DNA from: a bacterium
GTDB taxonomy: Bacteria; Electryoneota; RPQS01; DYHQ01
Assembly: GCA_030622545.1 (NCBI GenBank)
Contig: JAUXGA010000003.1
Location: 86,748 to 150,747 of the forward strand
Reading direction: 5' to 3'
Length of the DNA stretch: 64,000 bases
The notes below the pieces were generated by a model, which was not told where the DNA came from, did no database searches, and saw only the letters and a list, made by a program, of their open reading frames with translations. Made by a program: the position numbers and the translations under genes. Below are positions 5,718 through 30,274 of this stretch, in pieces; the stretch's first letter is position 1, and each line of letters starts with the position of its first letter.

Positions 5718-6770
5718 CTATTTCGACAACATCATTTTCTGGATAGATACCGCTTCACCTGTACGGAGTCGTGCGAAATAGGTGCCGGACGCAAGACCAG
5801 TTCCAAGAAAGGTAAACGAGTAATCACCAGGGGACAGCGATCCGTCATGCAGCGTCTCGACCAAGCGGCCGTTGATATCGTAAATGGAAAGCTTGACGTC
5901 GGCGGTTTCCTGCAGCGATATTTTCAAGTTCGTAGTCGGATTGAAGGGGTTGGGATAGACCGGATGCAATGTCGCATTGGCCGACGCAGCGGATGGGCTG
6001 TCAGGCGGCTCGATGTTCGGATTATTCCCGAAGCGTCCATCTCCAAACCTGTTCCTCATCCGTTCATGCATTGCCTGCGCTTCTTCGAATTGAACATAGC
6101 CGTCGCCGTTGGCATCAGCTCTTTGGAACCTCTCCTGAATTCTGTTTGCCCTGCGCATCTCACATCCCACCTCGAACTCGTCGAAGCTCAGCTTACCGTC
6201 GCCGTTAACATCTCTCTGGTTGAACATATCTGGCGGCGGCGGGTTGTTTCCGCGTCTTCCTTGTCTTTTAGCGCGCATCGCTAATGCTTCTTCATGTTGA
6301 ATGTAGCTGTCGCCATTGGTATCAATCCTTTGGAATCTCTCCTGAGCCCTGTTTCTTCTGCGCATTTCGCATCGCGCTCCGAATTCTTCGAAGCTTAGTT
6401 TACCGTCACCGTTAACATCTCTCTGGTTGAACATATCCGGCGGAGGCGGATTGTTTCCGCGTCTTCCCTGTCTCCGGGCGCACATTGTCTGTGCTTCTTC
6501 ACGTTGAATGTAGCCATCGCCGTTAGCATCGGCCCTTTGGAAATTTTCTTGAGCTCTCTCCGCTCTGCGGTTTTCATGCCCGCCTTTGAACTCTTCGAAG
6601 TTCAGTTTGCCGTCGCCGTTGAGGTCAAAGTTGCTGAACCGCTGTTCAGGATTGCAGTCGCGCCCGCCTCTGAATTGAGCATAACCAGCGGCGCTGATAA
6701 CAAAAAGCGCCAGCAGTGCTGTTAGAGACAGGTAAATCAGCGCATTGCGTTTTGATTTGATTTTTAACAT
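5718..6770 (-). CDS. Secreted EF-hand calcium-binding repeat protein with a T9SS C-terminal sorting domain
   Basis: Signal peptide begins at the internal Met MLKIKSKRNALIYLSLTALLALFV. Multiple DxNGDGxxxxEE EF-hand loops. The tail PVYPNPFNPTTNLKIS...GTYFARL...MMLSK is a T9SS sorting domain. The ORF track extends to 6824. Confidence 0.7.
   Translation of the reverse strand: MLKIKSKRNALIYLSLTALLALFVISAAGYAQFRGGRDCNPEQRFSNFDLNGDGKLNFEEFKGGHENRRAERAQENFQRADANGDGYIQREEAQTMCARRQGRRGNNPPPPDMFNQRDVNGDGKLSFEEFGARCEMRRRNRAQERFQRIDTNGDSYIQHEEALAMRAKRQGRRGNNPPPPDMFNQRDVNGDGKLSFDEFEVGCEMRRANRIQERFQRADANGDGYVQFEEAQAMHERMRNRFGDGRFGNNPNIEPPDSPSAASANATLHPVYPNPFNPTTNLKISLQETADVKLSIYDINGRLVETLHDGSLSPGDYSFTFLGTGLASGTYFARLRTGEAVSIQKMMLSK
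5980..6640. repeat. In-frame tandem repeats of about 207 bp (69 aa) inside the EF-hand gene
   Basis: The unit DMFNQRDVNGDGKLSFEEF...RQGRRGNNPPPP occurs twice nearly identically, plus a diverged third copy. Near-identical DNA blocks sit about 207 nt apart, for example around 6181 and 6388. Confidence 0.8.
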
Positions 6771-6953
6771 GGTAAGACCCTTTCTTCCATATGTTATGTT
6801 TTGTGATTTTTGCTTCCCGTTCACCCATTAGACGAACCCAACGTCTGGTTTATTCCACCGCTAATTTGCCCGGAATGCAAAAAAAACCGGAGGCGAATCT
6901 CATTGACGAGATTGTCGTCTCCGGTGGAATTCCCCGCACAGCTTTAAACGTTA

Positions 6954-8702: not shown

Positions 8703-8727
8703 TACATTGAGCGGCTGACGGGACTCG
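8703..8727 (-). repeat. 25-nt copy of the tRNA-Gly 3' end; att-like direct repeat (putative attR) of an island ending at 16471
   Basis: TGAGCGGCTGACGGGACTCGAACCC is identical to 16447-16471. The flanking sequence diverges immediately and no complete tRNA can be folded here. Confidence 0.7.
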
Positions 8728-8844
8728 AACCCTACAGATTAACGCCCTCTAAGCCCTGTAAAATCAACAGTTACAAAATCTTCGCTTACTCTTAAGAGTG
8801 TCCTCCAGTGTGACGTAAATTGCTGTTCTTTGCTCTGGATTCTC

Positions 8845-8871
8845 CAAAAAACAGTACATTTTCAGTACAGG
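8845..8871. promoter_or_regulatory. Paired CAGTACA motifs (aaaaaacagtacattttcagtacagg); candidate integrase arm-type sites
   Basis: It shares the exact 15-mer aaaaacagtacattt with 30260-30274, which lies between integrase 2 and the tmRNA 3' end. Confidence 0.4.
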
Positions 8872-8963
8872 AAAGTAGAGGAAAGAACTTCGTCCACAGT
8901 CTCTTGAGACTCCTAAGTCTGTTCAATCTTGACGTTCATGAGCTGGACCAGTCAGAACATGAT

Positions 8964-11918
8964 TCACGACTCGTTCTTCAAACGTGCTAATCGTTTCTTG
9001 GCATCTTCGATTTTTTCTATTCCCGGATCAGCGTCCTTCCAAATGTCGAGGAACTCTTCGTATTGTCCGATAGCTTTATTCGTCCAGCCTGATTTCTCGT
9101 AAGCTAACCCCAAATGGTACTGAGCTGTCACCGCCTCAATGGCGGTCATTGCCCTGACGCCATCATACCTTGACAGCGCTTTCTCCAGTTCAGTTACGGC
9201 TTCACCCAGCCTTCCTGATTCCAAGTAAACTTCACCGGCGAAGAGCCCCATTAGAAAGGGCAGAGAGCTTGATTCTGCAGATGCCTTTTCTACGAAGGTC
9301 GCCGCCGCTTCGGTGTTTCCTTGAACCATCTCAATATTGCTCATAGCCAGCCAGTACCGATGCTTGTAGATCTGATCCCCTTTTTCAATATCCGCTTTCA
9401 AGGCCCGTGTAACTTCGTTAGCCTCTTCAATCTGGTTATTCTCCGCCAGCATCACTGCATAATAGTCCCGCTGATAAATTAAATCACTGGGATTGGCCCT
9501 GTGTAAAATTTCCGTGCATTTCTTAGCTTGAACAACGGCCGCTTCTGAATTCTTCATCTCCCGATAGATACTGGCTTTCAAGAAATGCTTCCATGCATTC
9601 TGTGTTCCACTATATTGTTCCATTCTGTCTGCGGCAAGCCCGTTGTCTAAAACCTTCAGCGCTTCTTTGAACTTTCCCTTTTGAAGAGGGATATAAGCGA
9701 GGTAGGTTCTTCCCGATGACCGAGTACCTTTTTCGCTGCCGGAGGCAAGCTCTTTGTAACAGCTTTCAGCTTTTGCGTACTCCCGTTTAAAAAGATACAT
9801 ATGTCCCAGTTTGTCCAAGGAACCGAAATCAGGTTTGATTTGCAGCGCCTTTTTGTAAGACTCAATTGCCTCGTCAATTTTACCATTGTAACCATAGAGG
9901 TCACCTCGAGTATCATAAGGATTAGCTTCATCAGGCGCGATTGAGATGTATTTGCTGATGGCCCAGATGGATTTGTCAAAATCACCAATGGCATTGTAGG
10001 CATAAGCAAGGAAATTATATGCCATCTTGTAGAGAGGATCTATCTCAATAGCTTTTGTGAAAGAGCGAATAGCTTTCTGAGGCTCATTGAGTAGATTGTA
10101 ATAAATGACACCCGACCACATATACGCGCGTTTCTCATCAGGATAGCGTTCGATTATCTTCTCAGTTTCCTTGATTGCCTGCATAAAATTTCCAGATACA
10201 GCTAAGTTCAGACTTCGTATAGAACGTTTCTCCTTCCAGCTTGCTTTGTCGGAATATTGCATGGCCTTATCTGCTAATCTTGCCTTTTCCGAACCCGATT
10301 TGAACATAGCCAAATGATAGTATGCAACGGCGAAAGTTGAGTCAAATTCCAGGGCTTTCATGAAACTCTTCTCGGCGTCGTCCCAATAGAACTTTTGGAA
10401 GAGTTCGATTCCTTCCAGATAGTGGCGATAGGCTTCCGGTGAGCTTGTGGTGACATTCTGTATGAGACGATCCGGTTCCTCTTGAGCTTCAGTGGGCAGG
10501 GCTAAGTCTTTCTTGATTTCAGCGGTCAGTTTATCAACCAATGAAAATATATCTTCGCCTTTATCGCCGGTGATTCGCTGCGAAGCAATCGCGTTGCCTG
10601 TGGAGACTTCGACCACTTGTGCCGTGATGGTAATCTGCGGTTCAACCTGCAGAATATTCCCCAGAAGCATCCACTTTGCTCCCGCTTTCGTAGCTATCTG
10701 TGTCGCAACGCTTCGGTCAACTTTTTTCTCGCCTTCCCTTCCTAAGAGCTTGAGAATATCATACAATCTCTGACTGGAAACCACTTGGACATAGTGCGAT
10801 TCCGACAGGTCAGTAATCAGGAGATTCGTAACGATCTCTCCCCATCGTTGCTCATCCTCCGCGTCGGCTACATTATCGAAGTACATGATGGCGAGTCGAT
10901 TCTCTGCCGCAACAGCTTCAGCAGCAGGTCGCACCTCGAATGTCCAGGGTTTGAAAAGGACTAGCAGCAAAGCGATGAGGATTACTATCGAACCGGGGAT
11001 GAGAAACCTCAATGCACTCCTTTTTCGGAGTGTCACAGGTGGATGAGCATAGACGCTCGATTCCGAAGCTTTCTTAAGCCGTTTCAAATCCGTCAATAAA
11101 CTCACTACTGTTTGATAGCGCGTCTCCAAATCCTTATCGAGAGCTTCGTCGATGATTCTCTGCAAATCATCCGGAACATCTGATTTATATCGTGCCAGTG
11201 GTTCGGGTGTGTCATGCACAATAGCATTCATGGTCGCCGCTTCGGTATCTCGCTGAAATGGTGACTGACCGGTAATCATCTCATATAAAACAACACCGAG
11301 TGAAAAGATATCTGATCGCTGGTCAGTTTCTTTGCCCTCCACCTGCTCAGGAGACATATAGCTGACTGTTCCAAGCGTCGAACCGGTTCGAGTGAGTTTC
11401 GCTGTTCCCTTGACCGTCGCCAATCCGAAATCAAGCAATTTTGGCCGACCGTCGGCGTCCATGACGATATTCGACGGCTTGATATCTCGATGAATAATCC
11501 CTGCTTCATGAGCCTTGCTCAAGCCCTCACAAATCTGCACAGCAAGATTAATGATGGTGCTGATAGACAACTCTTGTTTCTCGATGAAATCCCGAAGAGA
11601 TTGGCCTTCCATGAGTTCCATCGCGAAAAACGGACGGCCTTGAAAATCCCCGACTTCATAAATCGTCACGATATTCGGGTGATTCAGTTGCGCCGCCGCT
11701 TGTGCTTCGCGTTTGAAACGGGTGCGGCAGTCTTCATCTTGACATAAGTGAGGCGGGAGAAATTTCAGGGCAACTTTGCGATTGAGCTTCGTATCTTTGG
11801 CAAGATACACTTCTCCCATTCCACCGGCACCGATCTTCTCGATGATTTGGTAATGGGAGATTACCATTCCTTTGGAAAGGACAACATGTGTCTGCGTCTT
11901 GCCGTTTTCAGATTCCAT
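8964..11918 (-). CDS. Hanks-type Ser/Thr protein kinase with TM helix, TolB-N-like domain and C-terminal TPR array (paralog 1)
   Basis: Kinase motifs GAGGMGEVY, VALK, HRDIKPSNI, DFG and SPE. The likely start is the internal MESENGKTQ (the ORF track extends to 11981). After the TM segment comes LAIMYFDNVADAEDEQRWGEI, then many TPR-like repeats. Confidence 0.85.
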   Translation of the reverse strand: MESENGKTQTHVVLSKGMVISHYQIIEKIGAGGMGEVYLAKDTKLNRKVALKFLPPHLCQDEDCRTRFKREAQAAAQLNHPNIVTIYEVGDFQGRPFFAMELMEGQSLRDFIEKQELSISTIINLAVQICEGLSKAHEAGIIHRDIKPSNIVMDADGRPKLLDFGLATVKGTAKLTRTGSTLGTVSYMSPEQVEGKETDQRSDIFSLGVVLYEMITGQSPFQRDTEAATMNAIVHDTPEPLARYKSDVPDDLQRIIDEALDKDLETRYQTVVSLLTDLKRLKKASESSVYAHPPVTLRKRSALRFLIPGSIVILIALLLVLFKPWTFEVRPAAEAVAAENRLAIMYFDNVADAEDEQRWGEIVTNLLITDLSESHYVQVVSSQRLYDILKLLGREGEKKVDRSVATQIATKAGAKWMLLGNILQVEPQITITAQVVEVSTGNAIASQRITGDKGEDIFSLVDKLTAEIKKDLALPTEAQEEPDRLIQNVTTSSPEAYRHYLEGIELFQKFYWDDAEKSFMKALEFDSTFAVAYYHLAMFKSGSEKARLADKAMQYSDKASWKEKRSIRSLNLAVSGNFMQAIKETEKIIERYPDEKRAYMWSGVIYYNLLNEPQKAIRSFTKAIEIDPLYKMAYNFLAYAYNAIGDFDKSIWAISKYISIAPDEANPYDTRGDLYGYNGKIDEAIESYKKALQIKPDFGSLDKLGHMYLFKREYAKAESCYKELASGSEKGTRSSGRTYLAYIPLQKGKFKEALKVLDNGLAADRMEQYSGTQNAWKHFLKASIYREMKNSEAAVVQAKKCTEILHRANPSDLIYQRDYYAVMLAENNQIEEANEVTRALKADIEKGDQIYKHRYWLAMSNIEMVQGNTEAAATFVEKASAESSSLPFLMGLFAGEVYLESGRLGEAVTELEKALSRYDGVRAMTAIEAVTAQYHLGLAYEKSGWTNKAIGQYEEFLDIWKDADPGIEKIEDAKKRLARLKNES

Positions 11919-11923
11919 AAGTT

Positions 11924-14563
11924 TTATCCATATTTCTTTAGGAGCGCTTTGAACCGCGGATGTTCGCGGAGAGGATCCCATCTCGGATCGAGGCGAAGCA
12001 AAGGAACTGAGAGTTCGGAGGGAATCGAAAGAAGGTAGTCTATTTGGTCCAAGGCGGCATCGTACTCACCCACCATCACATAGATTTGCGCCAGGTCAGA
12101 TACGCGTTCTGGACCGATTAAAGCGTCTTTCAAGATTGGCATGAGCTCCATTCCCTGCTTCCCTTCGCGGATCGCCTCCTCCTTGCGTCCAAGGCCGGCG
12201 TAGACAATGCCAAGAGAGCTGTGAAGGCGGTAATCGTCGGGCCGCTCTTTCACTTCCGCTTCCAGCAGAATGCGGGCAGAATCGAAGGAGGCGCGGGCAA
12301 GCTCAGGCTCGCCCATGAGCCGATAAACCAAACCCGTCAATTGGACATTTGGGATGAGTCGATACTGGTCGTCCCAAGATTCGGAGGACATGGAAGCGGT
12401 CCGATCCAATGCCGCTTGGTAGTCTCTCTCATACATTTCTTGCAGAAACCATCTGTAGCCGACCTTACCGGGCATCTCTTCTAAGATGGCCCGGGACCGT
12501 ACGGTATCACCTTTCCACCGGCAGCAATTCTCGGCTTTCATGTAGTAGGAACCCACCTGATCTGGAGCTAAGAAAATGGAGCGATCGTAATAGCGCTCGA
12601 CTTCGGCGTACCTCCTCAGGTAGGTGTAGGTAACGGCGATCTCCGAAGTCAGCTTGGCATCGCGTGGGTTCAATTCGAAAGCGCTTTTCTGGCGGTCTAT
12701 GGCTTCTTTAAACCTCCCCTGCCTCCGCCAGATATAGGCTACCAAGAGATTCTTAGCGCGTGTTGGTGGGGGATGATGCTTCTCCGCGGCGGCTAAGGCT
12801 TCCAGTGCTCGATCATAATCTCGATAGCCCCAATAGTAGTAGTACCCAAGCGCCAGATGTGCTTCTGGGAGTTCCGGGCTAAGTACGAGTGCCCGATCTA
12901 CTCCTGTCTTGGCCTTGGTCAAGCACTCTTCGGTACGGTCATACCAGAAGTGATACAGGCCTGAGTAGTTCTTTGAGAGTGCGGCGTAAGCCAAAGCGAA
13001 ATTGGGATCGAGTTTTACAGCTCGCTCGAACATTTGAGTCGCCCGTCGGAAATTCTCCTCGGTACGGTCCGGTCGCGCTACATATTCAGATCCGCGAAGA
13101 TAGGCCTGGTAGGCATCGAGGTTCTCAGTCGGCTTGGCCTGTAGGTCTCGCTGCTCCGGTTCGAGCAGCGTAACGTCGAGCGCCTCGGCAATCTTGGTCG
13201 CGATATCCGCCTGCACCGCGAAGATCTGAGTCAACGACCGCTCGTAGCTATCCGCCCAGAGATGGATATCATCCGATACCTTAATGAGCTGCGGCGTGAT
13301 ACGCACCCGATTTGTATCGCCCGATTTGTCCCACCGAATAGTGCCCTCTAAAATGAATTCGACTCCAAGTTCCTTGGCAATCACCGGAAGAGTCTTGTCT
13401 GTTTTCTTGTACTGTATTGAACTGGTGCGAGAGATGACGCCAAGCTCCTGAATGCATGCAAGTCGTCCAATAATCTCATCCGTAATACCGTCAGCGAAGT
13501 ATTCATCCTCTGGAGCGCCGAGATTGACAAATGGCAACACAGCCAGCATCTTTTTCCCTTCGCTCACCCCAGCCTGTTCCTTCGGCCAGAACGAAAACAA
13601 AACAACGACTGCAACAACAGCTGCAACGACACTCCCAACCATAAACGGCCAGCGAAAAGAGCGCTTCGGTGCCGCGATTGTCGCTCGACTCTCTCTCCTG
13701 ACCGCCAGACCTTTTAAATCAGAGATGACACTGGCAGCATTCTGATATCTCAACGAAGGATCTTTCTCAAGCAACTTGGAGATAATTCGCTGCAGTTCAT
13801 CTGGTACATCGGCTTTATACCGAGCCAATGGTTCCGGTGTATCATTCTGTATGGAATTCAGAATTGCTGCTTCTGTCTCCCCTGCAAAGGGACGACGACC
13901 TGCAATGAGTTCATACAAAATTATGCCAAAAGAAAAAAGATCGCTGCGGTGATCAACTTCCTTTCCCTGTACTTGCTCGGGAGACATGTAGCCTACAGTA
14001 CCAAGAGTCGAACCGGTCCGTGTGAGTTTCTCTGTCCCCTTAACCGTCGCCAATCCAAAATCAAGCAATTTTGGCCGACCATCAGCATCCATGACGATAT
14101 TCGATGGCTTGATGTCGCGATGAATAATCCCTGCTTGGTAAGCCTTGTTCAAACCTTCACAGATCTGCAGAGCAAGATTGATTATTGACTCGAAGGTCAG
14201 CGTATTTTGTTTGATAACATCTTGCAGCGACTGTCCCTCCACATATTGCATGACGATGTAAGGTCGTCCCTGATGTTCGCTAACATCATGGATAGCAATG
14301 ATATTCGGATGATCCAAAACAGCGGCAGCCTGCGCTTCGCGTTTGAAACGAGTGCGGCAGTCTTCATCCTGGCATAAATGCGGCGAGAGAAATTTCAGGG
14401 CAACTTTGCGATTGAGCTTGGTGTCCTCCGCAAGATACACCTCACCCATACCACCAGCGCCAATCTTCTCGATGATTTTGTAATGAGAGATTAACATTCC
14501 TGGAGAGAGGATTACGAACGACTGTGTTTTCCCCATTCCATTGTCATTGACGTTTGAAGGCAT
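11924..14563 (-). CDS. Hanks-type Ser/Thr protein kinase with TM helix, TolB-N-like domain and C-terminal TPR array (paralog 2)
   Basis: The kinase domain is about 85-90% identical to paralog 1 at protein and DNA level. The likely start is MPSNVNDNGMGKTQ (the ORF track extends to 14671). LAVLPFVNLGAPEDEYFADGITDEI motif, then TPR repeats. Confidence 0.85.
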   Translation of the reverse strand: MPSNVNDNGMGKTQSFVILSPGMLISHYKIIEKIGAGGMGEVYLAEDTKLNRKVALKFLSPHLCQDEDCRTRFKREAQAAAVLDHPNIIAIHDVSEHQGRPYIVMQYVEGQSLQDVIKQNTLTFESIINLALQICEGLNKAYQAGIIHRDIKPSNIVMDADGRPKLLDFGLATVKGTEKLTRTGSTLGTVGYMSPEQVQGKEVDHRSDLFSFGIILYELIAGRRPFAGETEAAILNSIQNDTPEPLARYKADVPDELQRIISKLLEKDPSLRYQNAASVISDLKGLAVRRESRATIAAPKRSFRWPFMVGSVVAAVVAVVVLFSFWPKEQAGVSEGKKMLAVLPFVNLGAPEDEYFADGITDEIIGRLACIQELGVISRTSSIQYKKTDKTLPVIAKELGVEFILEGTIRWDKSGDTNRVRITPQLIKVSDDIHLWADSYERSLTQIFAVQADIATKIAEALDVTLLEPEQRDLQAKPTENLDAYQAYLRGSEYVARPDRTEENFRRATQMFERAVKLDPNFALAYAALSKNYSGLYHFWYDRTEECLTKAKTGVDRALVLSPELPEAHLALGYYYYWGYRDYDRALEALAAAEKHHPPPTRAKNLLVAYIWRRQGRFKEAIDRQKSAFELNPRDAKLTSEIAVTYTYLRRYAEVERYYDRSIFLAPDQVGSYYMKAENCCRWKGDTVRSRAILEEMPGKVGYRWFLQEMYERDYQAALDRTASMSSESWDDQYRLIPNVQLTGLVYRLMGEPELARASFDSARILLEAEVKERPDDYRLHSSLGIVYAGLGRKEEAIREGKQGMELMPILKDALIGPERVSDLAQIYVMVGEYDAALDQIDYLLSIPSELSVPLLRLDPRWDPLREHPRFKALLKKYG

Positions 14564-14594
14564 TTGAAACTCTCTTGAAGAAGACGTCTTCCTG

Positions 14595-16241
14595 TTATTT
14601 TTCCCTGTGCAAAACCACCATCGTAATATCATCGCTGCGTGGAACATCTCCGATGAATTTGCGTACTTCATTCATCACCAATTCTGTCAATTCTTTCGGA
14701 GATTGGTTGCGACACTGTTGGACAAATTCCTCTAACCTTTCATCACTGAATTGTTCATCCTGACAGTTGATTGCTTCAGGAATGCCATCCGTAAAAATGA
14801 ATAAATAGTCGCCAGTTCCGAACTCGAGAGATTCCTCTTTCCAAATGTCGTGATCCAGCATTCCGATTGGAACACCAGATGACTCAAGATAATCTACAGA
14901 ACCTGCATCTCGCAGAATCAACGGTGGATTGTGTCCCGCATTAACGTAACGAAAAGTATGCGCACTTGGATCGAGTACGCCGATAAAAAGCGTCGCAAAA
15001 TCTCCCGGACGGCTGAAGGTCAGTAATTGTTTTGACATACGGCGCACGGCATCCAATGGATGAAAATCCTTCGCGTTATGCAAAATGCGGAAACCGGCCA
15101 AGATGTTTGAGGCTAAGAGAGCTGCCCCCATTCCTTTACCACAAACATCCGCTACAAGAAATAGGATTCGCCCATCTTCGAATTTTGCAATATCATAGAG
15201 ATCACCACCGACCTGTTTGCACTGAATCTGAAAGGCATGGAAGCTGTAATTAGCAAGATGAGGCAACTCTTTCGGTAATAATTGCTCCTGAATTTGTGAT
15301 GCGGTTTCCAGTTCAGACTCTAAAACCTGTTTGGCTTGTCGCTCTTTGAGGAGATTGCAATTGGCGATTTTGGCGCCAAGAATATTTCCAAAAGTCGCCA
15401 TTACTCTTAGATGGTCTTCATTATAATGATGCATGGGATTGGTCGTATCCGCATACAGAATCCCCGTGATTTTATCTTCATCAAACAGCGGCACGGCCAT
15501 CGCAGATTTGATGCGTGATTCGATGATTGATTTTTGCGCTGCAAATTTACGATCCCTTTGAATATCAGACAGCAAAAGTGCATTCTTCTGATTGAGAAGT
15601 TCATGGACGACTGTTCGAGAGATGTTAAATGAATCTGAATGTCTTCTATCAGAAGTATAAGAAGCGGCAACAGCGATTTCTTCCTTTTGTTCCTCGGCAG
15701 AGAAGATGGCGATGCGTTCAACCGGAATAAGATCTTTGAATAATTCCAACGCTTGACCATACATTTCTTCCGCAGGGCCAGACAAAATAAGCATCTTTCC
15801 CAGTTCGGAGAAGGCTTTAAACAACTTCGGGTTCTCAAGTATTTTGGATGGAAGAGGTTGAAGCGCTTCCTTTATCGGCAATCGAGTGACATTCACCAGA
15901 CCATCTACAGAATCAGTAATATGAACCGAACTATGCAGAATGTCAGAAAATTCATCACGAGAAATTTTTGCTTCTATTCCGCCGAAAGTGATAATGTCAT
16001 CAAGTTGAATTTGTACAGTGCCATCGATTCTGTGTCCATCGACAGCAGTCCCATTGTGACTTCCGAGATCTGTCAGATTGATTGTTTGTTCATCAATAAC
16101 GTCGAGCTGGGCATGTTTCCGAGACACCGTTTCATCTTCTATTATCAATTCGCACTGCGGGCTCCGTCCAATTGTGTACTTACCGCGTTGCAAAGGCCAC
16201 TTCTTGTGTTTGCCAGCCGATAGAATGAAGAAGTTAATCAT
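14595..16241 (-). CDS. FHA-GAF-PP2C (SpoIIE/RsbU-like) Ser/Thr phosphatase
   Basis: N-terminal FHA domain (GRSPQCELIIEDETVSRKHAQL…NGTAVDGHRI), a central GAF-like region, and PP2C motifs (LVADVCGKGMGAALLAS, FTDGIPEA, DDITMVVL). Confidence 0.85.
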   Translation of the reverse strand: MINFFILSAGKHKKWPLQRGKYTIGRSPQCELIIEDETVSRKHAQLDVIDEQTINLTDLGSHNGTAVDGHRIDGTVQIQLDDIITFGGIEAKISRDEFSDILHSSVHITDSVDGLVNVTRLPIKEALQPLPSKILENPKLFKAFSELGKMLILSGPAEEMYGQALELFKDLIPVERIAIFSAEEQKEEIAVAASYTSDRRHSDSFNISRTVVHELLNQKNALLLSDIQRDRKFAAQKSIIESRIKSAMAVPLFDEDKITGILYADTTNPMHHYNEDHLRVMATFGNILGAKIANCNLLKERQAKQVLESELETASQIQEQLLPKELPHLANYSFHAFQIQCKQVGGDLYDIAKFEDGRILFLVADVCGKGMGAALLASNILAGFRILHNAKDFHPLDAVRRMSKQLLTFSRPGDFATLFIGVLDPSAHTFRYVNAGHNPPLILRDAGSVDYLESSGVPIGMLDHDIWKEESLEFGTGDYLFIFTDGIPEAINCQDEQFSDERLEEFVQQCRNQSPKELTELVMNEVRKFIGDVPRSDDITMVVLHREK

Positions 16242-16395
16242 ATCACCGTTTCTTTTTCTTTAGAACATAAGGACTTTCATAGGTGGATCATTATAATTTA
16301 CAGCAATTGACTCCGAAAAGCAATAGAGAAAGCGTTCAAAGAGTTCTGAAATCAAGGTATAAGCTGAAAGTATAAACAATCCATATCCTGCGAAG

Positions 16396-16429
16396 CAAAT
16401 AAAAAGGGATTAGAAAAAACCTAATCCCT
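16396..16429 (-). terminator. Rho-independent terminator of tRNA-Gly
   Basis: AGGGATTAG / CTAATCCCT stem followed by a U-run on the minus strand. Confidence 0.6.
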
Positions 16430-16446
16430 TGAATATTAACAACTTG

Positions 16447-16518
16447 AGCGGCTGACGGGACTCGAACCCGCAACACCCAGCTTGGGAAGCTGATACGCTA
16501 CCATTGCGTCACAGCCGC
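16447..16518 (-). tRNA. tRNA-Gly (anticodon CCC)
   Basis: RC reads GCGGCTG TG ACGC AATGGTA GCGT A TCAGC TTCCCAA GCTGG GTGTT GCGGG TTCGAGT CCCGT CAGCCGC T. This gives a 7-bp acceptor stem, a CCC anticodon in the loop and a GGGTTCGAGTCCC T-arm. CCA is not encoded. Confidence 0.85.
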
Positions 16519-16596: not shown

Positions 16597-17742
16597 TTAA
16601 TTCTTCGTAGACAAAATGGTAGACAATTCTGATGTGGAAGCTTTTCTAAGTGCCTGTTTCAAATCGGACATATCAAGTAATCCTGCATAGTTGTGGATGG
16701 TCGTCTGTATGCTGCTATGTCCCAAAATCTGTTTGACTGCGATTAAGGGAACACCGCTAAGAAGCATGTTCACGGCGAACGTATCGCGAAGGTTGTGCAT
16801 TTTCAGTGATCGTAATCCTGCTGCATCCCTGGCGCGATTGAATTTGATTGAAACATCATGTCGTATTCCCGGAAACAGTTTTCCTTTGCGTGGTTCTGGG
16901 AAAGCATTCAGAAGTTCTTTCTTCAGTACAGGTAAGATGGGAATTCGTCGTCCCCGTTTGGATTTAGTGATTCCCGCCGCTAAGATGATTTGCTCTGCAT
17001 CCAAGTCTACAATTCCGACGTTGGAAGAAATCACTTTCCTTGTGGTGTCGAACCATTCAAGTGATCGGGCTTCATTGCGCCGCATTCCTGTCAGTGATAA
17101 GACGACTAAGAAGGTTCGAATGGATACGCCGTTCTGGGTAATAGATTCGGCAGCTTCCAGCAATCGTCTGACTTCATCTGGTTTGTAGTAATCCCTGTTT
17201 ACCTGCGCGGGCACCCTGACTTCGTGAATGTGTGGGGGGTTCCATTCTTCCAGATCATTTTCCCTGACGCACCAATTCAGAAAGGCACGAAGATTACGAA
17301 GATGAATGTTCAGCGTATGTTTTGATAGTGGTCTAAGTCGTTTCTTCAAGCGGTTTCTGGCACCGCGTTTTATCAGTGCCGCCTGGAATTGGGATACGTG
17401 CTTCTTGGTTATCGCTTTCAACTGTAGATTTCCAACTACTTCCATAAAGATTTTCAGGGTGTGCTGGTGCAATTCACCGGTACGTTCACCCCATTGATGC
17501 TGCCGTTCTTCAAGGTATTCTTCCACCAGGCTGTGGATAGTTGGGCTGTCCTGCCCTTTGGCATTGGCAAAGGGATCGCGTCCGCGGTCAAGTTCGTGCT
17601 GAAGGTACTGGGCAATCTTAGTCGCTTCTTTCTTCTGGCTGGTTTGGGTGTTATGGGATTTTCGTCGGCCGTCTGGATATTTAATTTTCGCATACCATAC
17701 AGTCTTTCCATCAGCCAACGTCCTACGGTATAGTGATGTCAT
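16597..17742 (-). CDS. Tyrosine-type site-specific recombinase / phage integrase (integrase 1)
   Basis: C-terminal HxxR…Y catalytic motifs (HNLRDTFAVNML, HNYAGL). Start chosen at the internal MTSLYRR, preceded by the RBS AGGAGGG; the ORF track extends to 17790. Confidence 0.9.
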   Translation of the reverse strand: MTSLYRRTLADGKTVWYAKIKYPDGRRKSHNTQTSQKKEATKIAQYLQHELDRGRDPFANAKGQDSPTIHSLVEEYLEERQHQWGERTGELHQHTLKIFMEVVGNLQLKAITKKHVSQFQAALIKRGARNRLKKRLRPLSKHTLNIHLRNLRAFLNWCVRENDLEEWNPPHIHEVRVPAQVNRDYYKPDEVRRLLEAAESITQNGVSIRTFLVVLSLTGMRRNEARSLEWFDTTRKVISSNVGIVDLDAEQIILAAGITKSKRGRRIPILPVLKKELLNAFPEPRKGKLFPGIRHDVSIKFNRARDAAGLRSLKMHNLRDTFAVNMLLSGVPLIAVKQILGHSSIQTTIHNYAGLLDMSDLKQALRKASTSELSTILSTKN

Positions 17743-17760
17743 GGTTATCCCTCCTAAGAT

Positions 17761-17796
17761 AGAAAAACCCCGAAGTGACTGAATTGTCACCTCGGG
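17761..17796 (-). terminator. Strong rho-independent terminator between the nuclease gene and integrase 1
   Basis: 12-bp stem CCCCGAGGUGAC / GUCACUUCGGGG followed by UUUUU on the minus strand. Confidence 0.7.
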
Positions 17797-17828
17797 GCTC
17801 TTGGGTTAATGGATATGTTTCTACGTTC

Positions 17829-18635
17829 TCACGCCAGCGGATCAGCTATGCAGCTTACCTTGAATGGACAATCCACGCACTGCCATCCTGGGTTCGGGTA
17901 GAAGTGCTCCTCTCTCATGGCCTCACTTATCATCATCAGCATCCTCACAAATCGCTGTGCATCCTGATAAGTGCGATGGGTCTGGTACTTCAGGTGCAGG
18001 GGTGTTTTGTTCTTTAAAAGTACATCGAATCGAAGGTGGATGACCTCATTCTTCTCAATTGAATAGGCTTCCCGCGCCCAAAGGCTATAGGCTGTCAGCT
18101 GTAAGTTTCGTTGCACAGAATCATCAGTGTAGCGCGCACTGGCTGTCTTGTAATCCACGAACACAATATTCCCGTCATCAGTCTGCTCGATCAGGTCAAT
18201 TCTTCCGACCAAAGGCACGTCCAAAGTTTCGCCGGTTTCTCCATCCACGACATTCAGGGTGAAATCCTCTTCTACGCCCAGAACATCGCCGGGTTTGACG
18301 TTCTTCATGAAGCAATCTAACATCGCATGTCCCTGTTGTTGTATTTCTACCGGATCCTTGCCCGTCTTGAACTTCATCTCGACCTCAGCACAATCCTGAT
18401 ACAATCTCGTATCGAAGACGTCCTGAAGGTCTGTGATGGATGTTCTCTTTCTCTCTAAGTGATCGGTGTAATATTTCTCGATGGCTGCGTGAATAGCAGA
18501 TCCAAGCGTAAGGGCTGCTGGTTTGAATTGCCATTCCTCTCTGTCGATGTACTGGAAGCGATATCTCAGGGGGCAGATCAGGTACGTGTTGACTTGGCTG
18601 AAGCTGATATGGTCTGGGATGTTTGCGTAATTCAT
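17829..18635 (-). CDS. PD-(D/E)XK nuclease, Cas4/RecB-like exonuclease with a 4Fe-4S cysteine cluster
   Basis: N-terminal Cys (YLICPLRY), C-terminal C-x2-C-x5-C (CVDCPFKVSC), and a DYK-type nuclease core (FVDYKTA). Start at MNYANIPD with the RBS AAGGAGG; the ORF track extends to 18701. Confidence 0.75.
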   Translation of the reverse strand: MNYANIPDHISFSQVNTYLICPLRYRFQYIDREEWQFKPAALTLGSAIHAAIEKYYTDHLERKRTSITDLQDVFDTRLYQDCAEVEMKFKTGKDPVEIQQQGHAMLDCFMKNVKPGDVLGVEEDFTLNVVDGETGETLDVPLVGRIDLIEQTDDGNIVFVDYKTASARYTDDSVQRNLQLTAYSLWAREAYSIEKNEVIHLRFDVLLKNKTPLHLKYQTHRTYQDAQRFVRMLMMISEAMREEHFYPNPGWQCVDCPFKVSCIADPLA

Positions 18636-18717
18636 GGTGTTCCTCCTTTGGGTAAAAGGGAAGCGGCGCGGCCGATATGTTATTCGACTACGCCGCCTCA
18701 TTGCTCTGTTTAATTGA

Positions 18718-19479
18718 TTAGTTCCCGTTCAGGAAATGCCTCGATACCTGTCTGTTCCACGTCTCCGCGCGAAATGACTCCTGCCGTGTGAAGACATCAG
18801 TGAACGCATTATACAGGGCCCACTGATTATCTCCGTCCAGTGCCATGAACACATCGGCAGTGTACGTCTTGGGCAGCTTCAATTCACGGAAGGTGTTCTG
18901 GATGTCGGCTCTGTCGATGGGGATGTCCACTATCCTCTTCAGGCATGTGACTAATCCCAGCATCTTGTTAGACAGTTCTCTGATAGTGATGGCTGCTTGG
19001 GATAGCTCCTCAGTGAAGCCCTCGTTTCCGTAGTGCTTGAAACGGAAGCCCCCTAAGCGGAAGTCAACGACCATACCATTCGTGCAGATAAGTCTTTGCG
19101 CATTGAAGGCCAGTCCGAATGTCGTGCTGCCGTCATAGCTGTTAAATACGTCCACGGCTATCTGGACGATGTCGTCCTTCTGGGGTTCGAAGTTGATCTC
19201 CGGTAGAAGCCATCTTTGACGGTATCTCTTTCCATCGAACAGGTGTTTGGCTGACTGGTACTCATGGCCGGTTTTCTCCAGCACTTCTGTGGCGATCTCA
19301 CAAACGGTGTGGTTCTCGACCAGCTGATAGTCACCAGACACGATACCGACCTCTCTGTTCTCACAGTAGGGGTCAAGGATCACGGCATAACGCGAAGATT
19401 GCGCTCCGTTCTCAGTAAATAGGGGAACCTTTTTCACGGCGGCAAAGGGATCCAGGGGTTCAGTTGTTTTCTGTGACAT
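18718..19479 (-). CDS. Hypothetical phage/ICE protein, DUF932-like
   Basis: 253 aa. The central region VFNSYDGSTTFGLAFNAQRLICTNGMVV resembles the DUF932 signature. Recalled from memory, not searched. Confidence 0.45.
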   Translation of the reverse strand: MSQKTTEPLDPFAAVKKVPLFTENGAQSSRYAVILDPYCENREVGIVSGDYQLVENHTVCEIATEVLEKTGHEYQSAKHLFDGKRYRQRWLLPEINFEPQKDDIVQIAVDVFNSYDGSTTFGLAFNAQRLICTNGMVVDFRLGGFRFKHYGNEGFTEELSQAAITIRELSNKMLGLVTCLKRIVDIPIDRADIQNTFRELKLPKTYTADVFMALDGDNQWALYNAFTDVFTRQESFRAETWNRQVSRHFLNGN

Positions 19480-19568
19480 GATAGTTTCCTTTCTGGGTTA
19501 ATGGCATAAAAAAAGCCTCGACTTTCTTATGAAGCCGGGGCCTTACGATACGATAATTCTTGTTACTC

Positions 19569-20228
19569 TCATGCAGGTACATCCTCCAGGATTGTCAGTA
19601 GCTCGTCTGCCTCGTGTGTGGTCAGTGCGTACAGGGATTTCGAAAAGCGATTGCGGATCTTCTTGATTAGTTGGTTCTGGGGGATACCTTTTTGCTTGGC
19701 CACCTGGAAGATCTTGCTCATTTGGGCGTTGGTGACTCGGTGGGATTGCTCTTCGGGTTCTGCTTCCTCCTCTGGCTGTGGATTAGCTGATTCCTTGCCT
19801 CCGTTTCCGTTCGGCTTGATTTCCAGCCCGTACAGGTGCAGTCCCACACCGAACTGCGTGGCGCACTTCTTCAGGCAATCTGATGCTGCTCCTTTCAGGT
19901 CGTCTCCGATGCTCACAGGTTGGTTGTCCTGCTTGCCTCGTGTGATCGAAGATGAACCGAATTGCTGGTGTGTGATTCCGTGGGAAGATAATTCTCCAAG
20001 GACGATGACCTCGTCCTCAAGGATCAGGTGCTCGACGATGCGGAATGACCAGTATCCTTCCATCGCTTGGTTCAGGCGTTCGATGACGTAATGGGATCCG
20101 ACATAGTCCAGCATTTTGCCAAATCTGCCCTTACGTTGTTGGATTCTCTCCTCTTCGAATGGCTTGGTTAGCGCCTCAAGATTAAGGCGGCCATTACCGG
20201 TGCCGGTGGTTGTCTCGGTGGTTTCCAT
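19569..20228 (-). CDS. Rad52/Rad22-family single-strand annealing protein (phage Sak-like recombinase)
   Basis: The motif DDLKGAASDCLKKCATQFGVGLHLYG parallels Rad52 [23 protein letters not shown]. It is adjacent to the Cas4-like exonuclease, a two-gene recombination module. It has an acidic C-terminal tail. Confidence 0.6.
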   Translation of the reverse strand: METTETTTGTGNGRLNLEALTKPFEEERIQQRKGRFGKMLDYVGSHYVIERLNQAMEGYWSFRIVEHLILEDEVIVLGELSSHGITHQQFGSSSITRGKQDNQPVSIGDDLKGAASDCLKKCATQFGVGLHLYGLEIKPNGNGGKESANPQPEEEAEPEEQSHRVTNAQMSKIFQVAKQKGIPQNQLIKKIRNRFSKSLYALTTHEADELLTILEDVPA

Positions 20229-20271
20229 GATGAATTCCTTTCTTGTTGGTTAATGGTTTGAATTGTGAATG

Positions 20272-20306
20272 TGAAAAGCCCCCGCTGGAAACAGACCAGG
20301 GGGGCT
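20272..20306 (-). terminator. Hairpin terminator immediately upstream of the Rad52-like gene
   Basis: GCCCCCCUGG…CCAGCGGGGGC stem followed by a U-run on the minus strand. Confidence 0.55.
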
Positions 20307-20847
20307 CGGAACGTTTTGGATTAAGCCGGCAAACCCAAGAATAGGGTTCTGGAAATATTTCCCGAATTTTGCTCTCTATAAAGGCATCTCTATTTGTCTC
20401 GATAGGACTAGGTGGTAGTGAAAAATATGTGTGGATTTCCGGTGGAAGAAGCGGATTGGCTGCTTCTGGACATCAGATTCAGTTGGATACGCGCAAAATC
20501 ACGCCGAATTTACCACGTACACGTGCTTTAACAGTAGAAACTGATCTGACGTAAGTGGCTGTTTTTGGAAGGGGTAAGACTATGTCAGGTACTGGGCAAA
20601 TGGAAGGCAGGATGCCCCCGTAACATCTGCTGCTTTCGGATGAATGAAGCTGGGGGGACATCCCCTTGCGGGGTGGTGGTGATAGCAGGAAGGGATCTGG
20701 TATCAGTGATATGGCCTCTGCGGACTGTGATGGGGCTGGCACCTGTTACAGGCAGCTGTCGGCGGATACCACGCTGGGGACAGGTGACAGGGCCTTCCGG
20801 CCGGGGACTGCTCTTTCCTGTGGTGTGTTTGTCTGCTTCAGGGTCCG

Positions 20848-20896
20848 GCACCTTTGTCAAAGTAAAGATTTCTCTATAATATATTTTGGAAGATTC
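20848..20896. promoter_or_regulatory. Perfect 11-bp inverted repeat with a promoter-like TTGTCA…TATAAT core
   Basis: CAAAGTAAAGA(T)TTCTCTATAATATATTTTGGAAGA(T)TCTTTACTTTG. This is the most conspicuous element inside the 760-bp non-coding stretch at 20229-20989. Confidence 0.4.
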
Positions 20897-20989
20897 TTTA
20901 CTTTGGGGCTGACACAAGACCAAGACAAGCACCACAGGGGGTCTCAAGGGGCTTCCGGCGGCGCCAGCCGCGTGAATCCCAGTACTTGG

Positions 20990-23900: not shown

Positions 23901-24046
23901 TCGCACGGGATTTCCTTAACGGCTTCGTGGGCTTCGGGCAAGGGAAGAAATTGTGGTCCCTGCCGTCTAATGGCCCAGACCTTCTTGTAATATGTGATAG
24001 GATTTTCCATTAAAGGGTGCCGCCGCGCATATTTATTACCAGACAA
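20990..24046 (-). CDS. Replication protein: PrimPol (AEP) primase-polymerase + DnaG-type CHC2 zinc finger + Cys-rich cluster + helicase-like C-terminal region
   Basis: AEP motifs DIDMVFDID and FTGSSGFHIY. CHC2 finger CPFHDDRNPSWSI…CFSC. Cys-rich segment CTAFCYVNCDR…CKNCEHY…CAMCQNYNC. Walker-B-like IIIDEV. 1018 aa. Confidence 0.75.
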   Translation of the reverse strand: MSGNKYARRHPLMENPITYYKKVWAIRRQGPQFLPLPEAHEAVKEIPCDPDQRIGAVWSIQDYWQQEDGPSDIDMVFDIDSQDTVGDARQLVDSLIKRFHLQDSQIQIYFTGSSGFHIYMPHHVFAHPRSPYTMTDIGESAQRIAGMAGVVPDMKIYRMGASAIVPPHVRHFKTGLYKIPLSFEELWQNDLSIFAEWAKEDRQPEDQRSPGLCDELKQFVADVHESLQCTEPQESRTRRQLARLAISSEDGNQAIAGSIISEYGVDIEEYLRDKVENAQRSRDELNASCPFHDDRNPSWSINLRTGQSHCFSCDDRDYNFEQLIEAAGWNPPNGLPPTIQWGLLRAKWLYKELKECRRSEERFYANLDANSVRILGEVYRVIRDRLENRYKSVESNYQADWTAVVKALCRNLDDIAIVPAAPGNFKTSIYRTYLEGLRRLDRYYGAIVVLPLQDDAKDLADEADRFVPGERNVSGRTVYPMLGHAKKICTAFCYVNCDRSPNGDGTFPECKNCEHYEGRGFEKYKPSQCAMCQNYNCRVKYNKERQRNSPILAITHARLAMQDMEDFMYWQDSSGHRHPRREIIIDEVPQFIKVNTVSYNSFVQFMNRLRKEQRKRPHELLHLRMFDTLRKQLEQLRVPEDEPGQGFIPPIDPGFKVSDGYVSAVHSVVDDDSDILRLSLGIIKEGGTYRRDAKGLHISYGYRTRDLPVGVKTTILDGTALANVHYDVLLDNRPDVRFLGSYQPRNIDKLIIRLDENRSMSQTSLGDNDDAKLKLFAQEIDRLMTYVHPDEEAFVLTFKEWENKIEAHLSDEVKARCQIKHYGQTPGSNDFRKATVMFFVGNLRYHEDQYLAQAAVLYGREVVDKADAESGPDKVRRFLNGHAEHYRQQSWLVDVVQQIYRTQLREYGINGPVTVYMGNRDKEFKRRLKEALKGIEPEEWPSVLSAPDSSRRLVGVLIEAFANPEVYKVPKADIRQAAGIKDKQRLTPVLDVLYTQWWMRQMDLGTDTRNFIRMGQMK

Positions 24047-24210
24047 ATCACCTTAATTTAGACAAATATTGTGGTGGATGCAATAGGGATAGATTAGCTT
24101 CCGCTTCATGCCAATCAGTTACACGGAGTAGATACAATGCAAAGGCGGTACTTTATTCTACCGCCTTTGCTGTATGTGATGTGGAGGTAAGTTCGGGGGG
24201 GGGGTGAAGG

Positions 24211-24756
24211 CTACTTCACCAGCAGGAGCTTGCGGACTTTGGTGAAGCTTCCCGCATCCATCCTACACAAATAAATGCCTGAAGGAAGGCCCCGTGCATT
24301 CCATGTGGCAGCATACGAACCTGCCGCCAGTTTTCCATCTACCAGGATTGCTACTTCCCTTCCCACCACATCATAAATCTTCAGGGAAACAAAACCGGTT
24401 TCCGCAACGTCATATGAAATCGTGGTTATCGGATTGAAAGGATTGGGATAATTCTGGTAGAGAGCATACTGTACTGGAACCGATGGCCTTCCCGGAGTAG
24501 CCTGAGCGGTCAGTTCATATTCATGAACAGTGCCGTTGATGTCGTGTGATATGAGGCGATATGTGTAAGTTACACCGTTGATAACATCGCTATCAACATA
24601 CTGGTAATTCGAGCCAGTTACTTCATTGGTGCCTTGGACTGTTCCGACGGTAATCCAATCACTGTTTGCCTGTCGCTGTATTTCAAAGTAGTCGTTATCT
24701 TTTTCACTGGCGGTAGTCCAAGTCAGAGTCACCTGTCCATCACCTGCGATTAGCAT
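24211..24756 (-). pseudogene. Orphan fragment: Fn3-like domain plus a T9SS C-terminal sorting domain with no signal peptide
   Basis: It starts directly with AGDGQVTLTWTTASEKDNDYF, the same module that begins the conserved C-terminus of genes 30826-32685 and 44290-46332. It has no N-terminal export signal and sits next to the IS5-family element. Confidence 0.5.
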
Positions 24757-24871
24757 GAAGATGAGGATGAAGAGGAGAATTGTTCACTCCTGCTAGTTTG
24801 ATCGCTGGGAGATCTTTTTGTAACAAAGGCGCTGACGGAAAACAATCACATGCACCTATTTCAGGAGACTA

Positions 24872-29066: not shown

Positions 29067-30191
29067 CTATTTCTTATCACTCTCACGCTTAGATCCAATT
29101 GCAATTTTGAGCTTCTTGATCTGTTGATGTTTGTGTTCAGGCAGTAGATTCAGGTACCGCTGTGTCTGGACGATACTGGAGTGACCGAGCCATTCCTGTA
29201 CGGTGCGGATGTCCACACCAGAGGCGAGGGCATTGGTGGCGAAGGTATGGCGGAAGAGATGAAGGCCGGTCATGTGGCGCCCTTTGTCGATGCGAACGCC
29301 TTCGTTTCTCTCTATGCGGTCAAGCAACGCAACCCATGTGTTTCGATTATGTCCCTTGGGATTGCCGTTTCGTCCTGTGAATACGTATGGAGTGGACTCA
29401 TCTCGTTGACGCCTAAGTTTCTTGAATCCTTCAATAGCTTCTGAATGAAGAGGAATAATTCGATCCTTGCGATTCTTTGTTCGGTGTGTTGTTGTGCTGC
29501 GAACTTTCAAATGTTCCTGTCCGGAAGTAAGATCTATATCCTGCCATTTCAGATACCTTGCTTCGCCGTCTCGCAAACCGGTATAGAGCAGGGTTTGATA
29601 GAAGGGTATCAGATGTTTTTGGGCATACTTGAAAATCAGTGCTAACTCATCAGGCGTTAGAATTTCAATAGGTGGTTTCTCAGCATATCTTTTGGTAATA
29701 TTAGCGGCAGGATTCCGCACAAGGTATTCTCTGCCTACTGCAAATCGGAAAAATCGTTTAATTGTGCCAAGTTCTTCGTTCCAAGTCTTAGCAGCGAGAA
29801 CTTCGGATCGATTGTCCAAGTGTTCTTCTATATCTTGTGTTGTAACCCTGACGAGGTTAATCAAACCATTGTCTTTGAGAAACCGTACAAAAGGTGAGAA
29901 CAACTGATTCAACCGCTTCGACCAAGAGGAAGACGTCTTATCGATCACACGAGAATAGAATTCCGCAATCACTTTCGGTGAACTTATACGCTGTTGGGGT
30001 AAGCCAGTAATGCCGCGTTCAAGATTCTTCTCAATATCGGCCTTGGCAAGCTCCGCCATCTTCTTGCCGGTAACTTTTAGAGATTTTTTAAGCTGTCTGC
30101 CGTTCTCCATATAAGTAATCCACCAGACTTTACCTGGTTTCTTCTGGCCCGAGGTTGGGTCGGTGATTTCACGACGATAGATTTTTGCCAT
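29067..30191 (-). CDS. Tyrosine-type site-specific recombinase / integrase (integrase 2) adjacent to tmRNA
   Basis: C-terminal LFRHTFATNALASGVDIRTVQEWLGHSSIVQTQRYLNL (HxxR…Y). Start at MAKIYRREI with the RBS AAGGAAAG; the ORF track extends to 30272. Confidence 0.85.
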   Translation of the reverse strand: MAKIYRREITDPTSGQKKPGKVWWITYMENGRQLKKSLKVTGKKMAELAKADIEKNLERGITGLPQQRISSPKVIAEFYSRVIDKTSSSWSKRLNQLFSPFVRFLKDNGLINLVRVTTQDIEEHLDNRSEVLAAKTWNEELGTIKRFFRFAVGREYLVRNPAANITKRYAEKPPIEILTPDELALIFKYAQKHLIPFYQTLLYTGLRDGEARYLKWQDIDLTSGQEHLKVRSTTTHRTKNRKDRIIPLHSEAIEGFKKLRRQRDESTPYVFTGRNGNPKGHNRNTWVALLDRIERNEGVRIDKGRHMTGLHLFRHTFATNALASGVDIRTVQEWLGHSSIVQTQRYLNLLPEHKHQQIKKLKIAIGSKRESDKK

Positions 30192-30252: not shown

Positions 30253-30274
30253 ACAGTACAAAAACAGTACATTT
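30253..30274. promoter_or_regulatory. Paired CAGTACA motifs (acagtacaaaaacagtacattt) between integrase 2 and the tmRNA 3' end; candidate arm-type sites
   Basis: Exact 15-mer match to 8846-8860. Positioned in the putative attL region. Confidence 0.4.

Follow-up and report, generated by a model that had tools for sequence, protein, structure and literature searches.

A probable integrase-free island at the 3' end of a tRNA-Gly(CCC) gene carries a conserved phosphatase-kinase operon in an uncultured Electryoneota bacterium

The 64,000-nt stretch of contig JAUXGA010000003.1 analysed here (assembly GCA_030622545.1, positions 86,748 to 150,747; hereafter the window) stems from an uncultured bacterium of the Electryoneota and contains a segment, 8733–16443, that is probably a non-autonomous or decayed island at the 3' end of a tRNA-Gly(CCC) gene, resembling a cis-mobilizable element (CIME) and carrying an operon typical of the lineage. 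The segment is bounded by a direct repeat of the tRNA 3' end, its site is empty in a relative, and its three genes encode two receptor-like kinases and a phosphatase with recognizable domains, an operon that is conserved elsewhere. Furthermore, its tetranucleotide composition is atypical, and one of its non-coding arms resembles the region upstream of an integrase gene located at a tmRNA gene of the same window. From these observations we infer how the segment may have been recombined into the tRNA gene, which integrase may have acted, and how the encoded pathway may signal.

The tRNA-Gly(CCC) insertion site

The 25-mer TGAGCGGCTGACGGGACTCGAACCC occurs in two exact copies in the window (8708–8732 and 16445–16469) and was matched in none of 100 dinucleotide shuffles, even with up to three mismatches permitted. 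The identity widens to 26 nt in the same orientation (26/26; Table 1). ARAGORN and Rfam agree in calling a tRNA-Gly(CCC) gene on the minus strand (16446/7–16518), so that the repeat, read in reverse complement, covers the T-arm and the 3' acceptor strand with two nucleotides beyond them. The island lies on the downstream side of the tRNA-Gly, where an element that integrates into the 3' end of a tRNA gene should be. The original prediction had recognized the 25-mer as a direct repeat of the tRNA-Gly 3' end, at positions that were off by 5 and 2 nt. Its concern that the 25-mer could be a common genomic repeat proved unfounded: beyond the window, it is present only in the tRNA-Gly of one relative, the contig L002, among the 150 fetched loci that were scanned, and is thus neither common nor dispersed. 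A terminator-like hairpin (16404–16430), which is supplied by the island, directly follows the reconstituted tRNA.

At the distal end the junction between arm and tRNA fragment is abrupt, the arm being without any similarity to the 5' part of the tRNA, which favours a recombination joint over a decayed second tRNA. According to the latter scenario, two tandem copies of tRNA-Gly would have flanked a native operon, one copy would have shrunk to 26 nt, and L002 would have lost the operon by homologous recombination between the copies; since the operon is found directly downstream of tRNA-Lys(TTT) with conserved synteny in a sister clade, an adjacency of tRNA and operon can indeed be native. However, the fragment starts exactly at the T-stem, is 100% identical and has no tRNA sequence upstream, whereas decay would not yield so sharp an edge. 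Moreover, the tRNA-Lys loci lack a direct repeat and the composition of the island is atypical, and we regard the repeat as highly unlikely to be the remnant of a second tRNA-Gly.

The L002 contig belongs to the metagenome-assembled genome (MAG) of another species and was found by a search with the extracytoplasmic function (ECF) sigma factor encoded after the tRNA fragment of the window. The sigma factors are 93% identical on the amino acid level and the flanks 86–88% on the nucleotide level. L002 contains a complete tRNA-Gly(CCC), with 1699–1780 of L002 being 100% identical to window 16524–16443 over 82 nt, and this tRNA runs straight into the flank that lies behind the fragment in the window: L002 1754–1890 is colinear with window 8732–8597 at 87.6%, and L002 1947–2828 matches window 8607–7731 at 86%. 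Such an arrangement is the predicted empty site. An intact tRNA-Gly abutting this flank in a relative was what the original prediction had proposed to look for, and together with the 26/26 repeat it bears out the interpretation of the two copies as attL and attR.

Upstream of its tRNA, L002 has 1.7 kb without a counterpart in the window, including a promoter-like site (TTGACT-17-TATGTT) ~74 nt before the tRNA; no promoter-like site was seen between the tRNA-Gly and the integrase gene upstream of it in the window. A GC-rich sequence similar to repetitive extragenic palindromes (REP; approximately GCCGCG.CATG.GTC.CGC.TGCCCGG) is located at ~790–850 and 1891–1946 of L002, as well as at ~2700–2760 of L145, a third relative, where it marks the start of the homology between L145 and L002; it is absent at the corresponding position of the window. 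The contigs of further relatives (L146–L148) begin after the sigma gene and do not cover the tRNA-Gly site.

Gene content of the island

Over its 7.7 kb the island comprises three tightly packed genes, all on the strand of the tRNA and in the order phosphatase, kinase 2, kinase 1, between two non-coding arms (Table 1). An open reading frame (ORF) scan revealed no further credible ORF inside the island. Likewise, no recombinase was detected inside it by the ORF scan, by domain hits, or with a tyrosine-recombinase profile hidden Markov model (HMM) built from 121 sequences; in the window the profile matches only 16600–17805 and 29070–30311, the two integrases, both of which lie outside, so that the island is free of an integrase as originally described. 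Neither of the arms has an Rfam match, and the distal arm, previously given as 236 nt, measures 231 nt.

Kinase 1 contains a Hanks-type Ser/Thr kinase domain, one transmembrane segment, a weak LpoB/FlgO-like match and tetratricopeptide repeats (TPR), and kinase 2, the true start of which is probably near 14566, is its paralogue (49.6% identity over 550 amino acids). The motifs GxGxxG, VALK, HRDIKPSN, DFG and SPE, as read from the sequence, are intact. In the phosphatase, the FHA residues GR...SRxH...NG and the PP2C motifs GGDLYD, ADVxGKG, TDG and SDD are present and occupy invariant columns in an alignment of 34 family members. The kinase and TPR domains of both kinases and the FHA, GAF and PP2C domains of the phosphatase had been correctly assigned in the earlier annotation, whereas its TolB-N domain comes down to the weak LpoB/FlgO-like match of kinase 1. 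With this domain composition, the single-pass kinases may sense an extracytoplasmic cue through their TPR ectodomains and then autophosphorylate, while the phosphatase would dock via its FHA domain on phospho-threonine and reset the signal, the GAF domain being a possible ligand input.

Table 1. Features of the island and of the neighbouring integrase genes in the window.
Feature	Position	Strand	Remarks
Distal att copy (attR)	8707..8732	-	26 nt identical to the tRNA-Gly(CCC) 3' end; adjoins the native downstream flank
Distal non-coding arm	8733..8963	-	231 nt
Block common to the distal arm and the integrase-2 upstream region	8806..8869	-	Tandem motif and 56-nt alignment
Kinase 1	8964..11918	-	984 aa in the protein collection entry for this contig; ORF reaches 11981
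Kinase 2	11924..14671	-	Hanks kinase domain, one transmembrane segment, TPR
FHA-GAF-SpoIIE/PP2C phosphatase	14595..16241	-	548 aa
Proximal non-coding arm	16242..16443	-	202 nt; carries the hairpin
Proximal att copy (attL core)	16444..16469	-	Within the intact tRNA
Intact tRNA-Gly(CCC)	16446..16518	-	ARAGORN, Rfam
Integrase 1, tyrosine recombinase	16597..17742	-	Not part of the island; same strand as the tRNA-Gly, 78 nt from its 5' end on the upstream side
Integrase 2, tyrosine recombinase	29067..30191	-	Canonical place downstream of the tmRNA 3' end
Second CAGTACA-N4-CAGTACA copy	30254..30271	-	Between the tmRNA 3' end and the integrase 2 start

The phosphatase-kinase operon in other bacteria

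For the phosphatase, 2460 homologues were found, of which the best 120 measure, with few exceptions, 546–551 amino acids; the best non-self match in the protein collection shares 66% identity, and the named members of the family all belong to Zixibacteria. Exact-protein look-ups of the phosphatase and of integrase 1 returned no other contig. For comparison of the gene neighbourhoods, 82 phosphatase loci were examined, two that were looked up and 80 from metagenomes. In nearly all loci with at least 44% identity, one to four kinase genes directly follow the phosphatase, with a gap of a few tens to ~200 nt between the phosphatase stop and the kinase start. One locus (L063) has the identical order, with a phosphatase of 62%, a kinase-2-like protein of 52% (sensor part) and a kinase-1-like protein of 75% identity; there the operon is preceded not by a tRNA but by a housekeeping-type gene, presumably for an acyl-CoA synthetase. 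The profile search found a tyrosine recombinase near the operon in 0 of the 82 loci, in the sequence examined of up to 10 kb on each side. The cargo of the island is hence an ordinary conserved sensory operon that is common in related, Zixibacteria-like bacteria, and the view of it as unusual cargo has to be abandoned, given the conserved unit, the 82 ordinary chromosomal contexts and the shared order in L063. A 198-amino-acid fragment with 90% identity to the C-terminus of kinase 1 is encoded on an ENA contig from another metagenome, indicating that at least one sister population carries kinase 1; the idea that the cargo is unique to this genome was rejected on this ground.

In the closest clade (L061/L072, L066, L067, L069, L105), the phosphatase gene is preceded, at a distance of 70–150 nt, by a tRNA-Lys(TTT) gene of the same orientation, which in L102 lies at 1.6 kb from it. 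In L069 the phosphatase and one kinase are placed between tRNA-Lys(TTT) and tRNA-Lys(CTT). Genes for mraZ and a C25 peptidase upstream of the tRNA-Lys loci are syntenic in the five longer loci, the synteny with dcw/mraZ genes being kept in one clade of the phosphatase loci, and no direct repeat of the tRNA end was found at the tRNA-Lys loci. The adjacency to tRNA-Lys therefore reflects inherited gene order and not mobility, and the proposal that the operon is generally tRNA-associated and mobile was dismissed. In the complete Zixibacteria genome CP070813 (L062), four exact 24-nt copies of the tRNA-Asn(GTT) 3' end lie within 700 nt on one strand (12762–13457), next to an assembly gap and just downstream of the phosphatase-kinase pair; ARAGORN calls one of them as a tRNA gene, and the array may consist of tRNA (pseudo)genes in tandem or of att remnants stacked on one another.

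A role of the cassette in anti-phage defence or abortive infection, as part of a defence island, had also been considered. Both kinases match the PD-T4-6 models of PADLOC with E values of ~1e-95, and in addition mad6, MkoA and C3a189, and the module is located in a region rich in mobile elements. However, the matches span residues ~35–340 of 915–1005 and thus no more than the generic kinase domain of the Hanks type, and for the phosphatase PADLOC gave no match. While the strong kinase-domain match is shared with the single-gene kinase defence PD-T4-6, the island kinases are transmembrane receptors of 900–1000 amino acids with TPR ectodomains, encoded in a conserved operon with a phosphatase, and are unlike the PADLOC PD-T4-6 profiles, which are 292–564 positions long. 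Since the operon also resides in 82 ordinary chromosomal loci, 0 of which have a tyrosine recombinase in the sequence examined, a defence function is extremely unlikely.

Composition and integrity of the contig

The tetranucleotide usage of the island correlates with that of the backbone at 0.787, compared with 0.869–0.939 (median 0.908) for 35 backbone windows of the same size; the third-position GC content (GC3) of its three genes ranges from 0.41 to 0.55. By contrast, the backbones left and right of the island agree at 0.95–0.98, which argues against a chimeric contig. This bears on the possibility that the arrangement is an assembly artefact, in which the conserved tRNA gene, the 26-nt repeat or both served to join a MAG chimera. 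The window belongs to a MAG contig that is 229,905 nt long, two species share the tRNA without a mismatch over 82 nt, an identity that can mislead assemblers, and the homology with L002 breaks on both sides of the tRNA. Furthermore, a Logan contig (SRR14923484; L001), an independent assembly of the same strain that equals window 8729–6170 (2560 nt, 100% identity), reaches 23 nt into the 26-nt repeat before it breaks off and thereby hints at a graph branch there. Yet this contig does not end where a simple occupied/empty polymorphism, or the corresponding branch, would place its end, and assemblers normally build final contigs with k-mers longer than the 26-nt overlap. In addition, the contig joins one genome to itself, as judged by the matching backbones, and a displaced tRNA 3' fragment beside the native flank is what biology predicts, so that an artefact appears very unlikely.

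The GcvT protein of the backbone falls into a 90% cluster of nine sequences, and its best named relatives, from KSB1 and Calditrichota, share 62–69% identity. A trehalose cluster (DUF5752, TreT, trehalose-phosphatase and OtsA; window 47398–52700) has the same order in CP070813 (15110–19331), with 45–67% amino acid identity; the distance from this cluster to the phosphatase-kinase pair is 3.5 kb in CP070813 and ~31 kb in the window. On the other side of the island, three tandem 207-nt repeats (6068–6688; 64–80% identity to a reference copy) are located inside the gene of an EF-hand protein with a type IX secretion system (T9SS) sorting domain (5718–6824).

Candidate integrases and the shared arm block

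Integrase 1 is situated on the 5' side of the tRNA, as originally noted, its gene ending 78 nt before the tRNA 5' end. It had been described as the only nearby integrase, a statement that was incomplete, since a second tyrosine integrase adjoins the tmRNA gene 13 kb away; its start is likely MAKIYRRE, and the two integrases share 23% identity. Integrase 2 is a candidate for a trans-acting or ancestral-type integrase of the island. The tandem motif CAGTACA-N4-CAGTACA occurs in exactly two copies in the 64 kb, one in the distal arm (8852–8869) and one upstream of integrase 2, where 0.13 copies are expected and two were reached in 0 of 100 shuffles; no copy was found in the 150 fetched loci. Moreover, 56 nt of the distal arm (8806–8861) can be aligned with the sequence upstream of integrase 2 at an identity of 68%; two anchors, of 15 and 8 nt, match exactly and are spaced by 47/48 nt. 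The Smith-Waterman score of 20 compares with 10.4 ± 1.6 for shuffles and was reached by 0 of 1000. At the level of sequence, the shared block connects the island, which lacks an integrase, with elements of the integrase-2 type. It may represent candidate arm-type binding sites, or a relic promoter or upstream region of an integrase the gene of which was deleted, two options between which the block does not discriminate because the two elements carry it on different sides of their cores.

The same similarity raises the possibility that the island is a still-active cis-mobilizable cassette, which would have functional attL and attR sites and be excised and integrated by an integrase encoded elsewhere in the genome, be it integrase 2 or 1. 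Both att copies are perfect (26/26), the site in L002 is precisely empty, the tandem motif is confined to the distal arm and the region upstream of integrase 2 and has an 11-bp period that is typical for arm-type sites, the 56-nt block is significant, the 3' ends of tmRNA and tRNA-Gly are identical at 19 of 26 positions, and the concept as such is documented (PMC3146451). However, the location of the block on opposite core sides fits a relic promoter equally well, integrase 2 sits at a different att site, at the tmRNA, besides being only 23% identical to integrase 1, and the absence of the tandem motif from the 150 fetched loci leaves the idea without comparative support. Present activity of the cassette is therefore possible, if rather unlikely. 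A broader version, according to which the operon is packaged as a minimal integrase-less cassette with an att site at each end that is switched in and out of tRNA-Gly and moves between related genomes via a borrowed integrase (2-type or 1), is somewhat more doubtful still.

The gene of integrase 1 is part of a compact gene set (16597–24046) that resembles a mobile element and is located directly upstream of the tRNA-Gly 5' end. The tetranucleotide correlation of this set with the backbone is 0.57, identifying it as compositionally foreign. Besides integrase 1, it encodes a PD-(D/E)XK (Cas4-like) nuclease, a DUF932 protein, a Rad52-type annealing protein, a 120-amino-acid ORF and a primase-like protein of 1018 amino acids with a DnaG-type zinc ribbon. 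Relatives of the DUF932 protein with at least 90% identity are found on another NCBI contig (516,689 nt) and two ENA contigs, while viral contigs yielded no useful relatives of integrase 1, integrase 2, the DUF932 protein or the primase-like protein. A location 5' of the tRNA was tried as a family trait of integrase 1 and was not upheld in a small sample of two relatives. The adjoining region (24047–30695) contains the tmRNA gene (tag ANSTYALAA) and, directly downstream, integrase 2, followed by an excisionase-like HTH_17 ORF, two fragments of insertion sequence (IS) transposases (DUF4096; HTH_29/32 type) and a truncated S8 peptidase, and looks like a decayed tmRNA island. Searches for repeats bounding the integrase-1 element and for a distal repeat of the tmRNA 3' end found none.

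Formation of the island

Taken as a tRNA-Gly(CCC) 3'-end island, the segment would have been placed by site-specific recombination of the tyrosine-integrase type, with a crossover somewhere within the 26-nt identity that extends from the T-arm to 2 nt beyond the 3' end. The incoming DNA would give the tRNA-Gly a new 3' end and a terminator, whereas the original 3' end would be pushed 7.7 kb downstream, where it still adjoins the native flank. The resulting island, with one operon, two non-coding arms and no recombinase, would now be non-autonomous: either it lost its own integrase, in which case the distal arm may retain an integrase-2-type upstream relic, or it was always moved in trans.

Several observations weigh against this interpretation. 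The empty site rests on one relative, L002, and the homology with L002 also ends 6 nt upstream of the tRNA, which is unexplained by simple 3'-end integration. L145 has neither the tRNA-Gly nor the first ~110 nt of the flank, and glycosyltransferase genes abut its sigma flank, indicating that the region rearranges by other routes as well; the three arrangements seen in three relatives characterize the interval between tmRNA and tRNA-Gly as a zone of plasticity. In addition, the polarity could be either an insertion in the lineage of the window or a precise excision in that of L002, although the two att copies mark site-specific recombination in both cases. The GC content of the island (0.470) does not differ from that of the backbone (0.48–0.50), and the compositional contrast that the original prediction had proposed to check is thus limited to the tetranucleotide signature. 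Furthermore, the island phosphatase shares 58% identity with that of the complete Zixibacteria genome, a value bracketed by the 45–67% of the backbone trehalose genes, so that a distant foreign donor is unsupported. With kinase 1 present in a sister population, the island may also be as old as the split from the sister lineages. Finally, no integrase is tied to the att site of tRNA-Gly and the role of integrase 1 for the island is putative, the two relatives of integrase 1 that were examined being located 1.3 kb downstream of a tRNA-Arg and in a phage-like contig, respectively. A cross-phylum transfer from Zixibacteria had been considered as the origin of the cargo and was found unsupported, the backbone trehalose genes being equally similar.

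Relation to known elements and signalling systems

In streptococci, CIMEs share their att site with an integrase-bearing partner, which is located in tandem downstream. The segment at tRNA-Gly resembles these CIMEs, as well as the ssrA islands of Dehalococcoides, in being delimited by the intact 3' end of a tRNA or tmRNA gene on one side and by a short direct repeat of this end on the other, and in containing cargo only, without integrase or transfer genes, in a plastic region near integrase-bearing elements. For Dehalococcoides, 15 ssrA islands without an integration module but bounded by direct repeats were described, and an integrase-bearing partner, in this case with a serine recombinase, uses the same att site in tandem downstream (PMC3146451). 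By contrast, the integrases of the window are placed otherwise, integrase 1 on the 5' side of the tRNA and integrase 2 at the tmRNA gene, and no integrase-bearing element downstream of tRNA-Gly, and no partner sharing its att site, was found. Islands of this kind, integrase-less and bounded by direct repeats, are thus already known, and a specialist in mobile elements would find no surprise here.

The similarity extends to the classical tRNA islands and prophages, with which the segment shares the identity from the T-arm to past the 3' end, the pairing of an intact tRNA with a 3' fragment at the opposite end, an unoccupied site in a relative and the terminator supplied by the island. Williams is said to have described in 2002 a T-loop/3'-end sublocation within tRNA genes, with an attP that carries the 3' portion of the tRNA. 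Unlike the classical islands, the segment has no integrase inside, is very small (7.7 kb) and consists of a single operon.

As to the cargo, PknB and PstP with their FHA partners are the Hanks-type kinase and PP2C phosphatase pairs of Actinobacteria. The operon of the island, a putative signalling module, is alike in that membrane kinases with an extracytoplasmic sensor are encoded beside a PP2C phosphatase and an FHA reader is present. However, a single cytoplasmic protein combines FHA, GAF and PP2C, the ectodomains consist of TPR and not of PASTA domains, and in relatives the phosphatase gene is followed by two to four kinase paralogues.

The locus represents a clean and minimal tRNA-site island in an uncultured bacterium of the FCB group, in which the att copies, the empty site and the one-operon cargo are all readable. 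It indicates that a signalling operon that usually resides in ordinary chromosomal contexts can also sit in a segment bounded by recombination sites, and sensor-kinase complements may therefore vary among close relatives by gain and loss of islands. The arm block shared with integrase 2 provides a concrete, testable lead on how integrase-less islands move. If the operon were indeed switched in and out of the tRNA gene, a whole sensory pathway would be a presence/absence polymorphism under the control of site-specific recombination.

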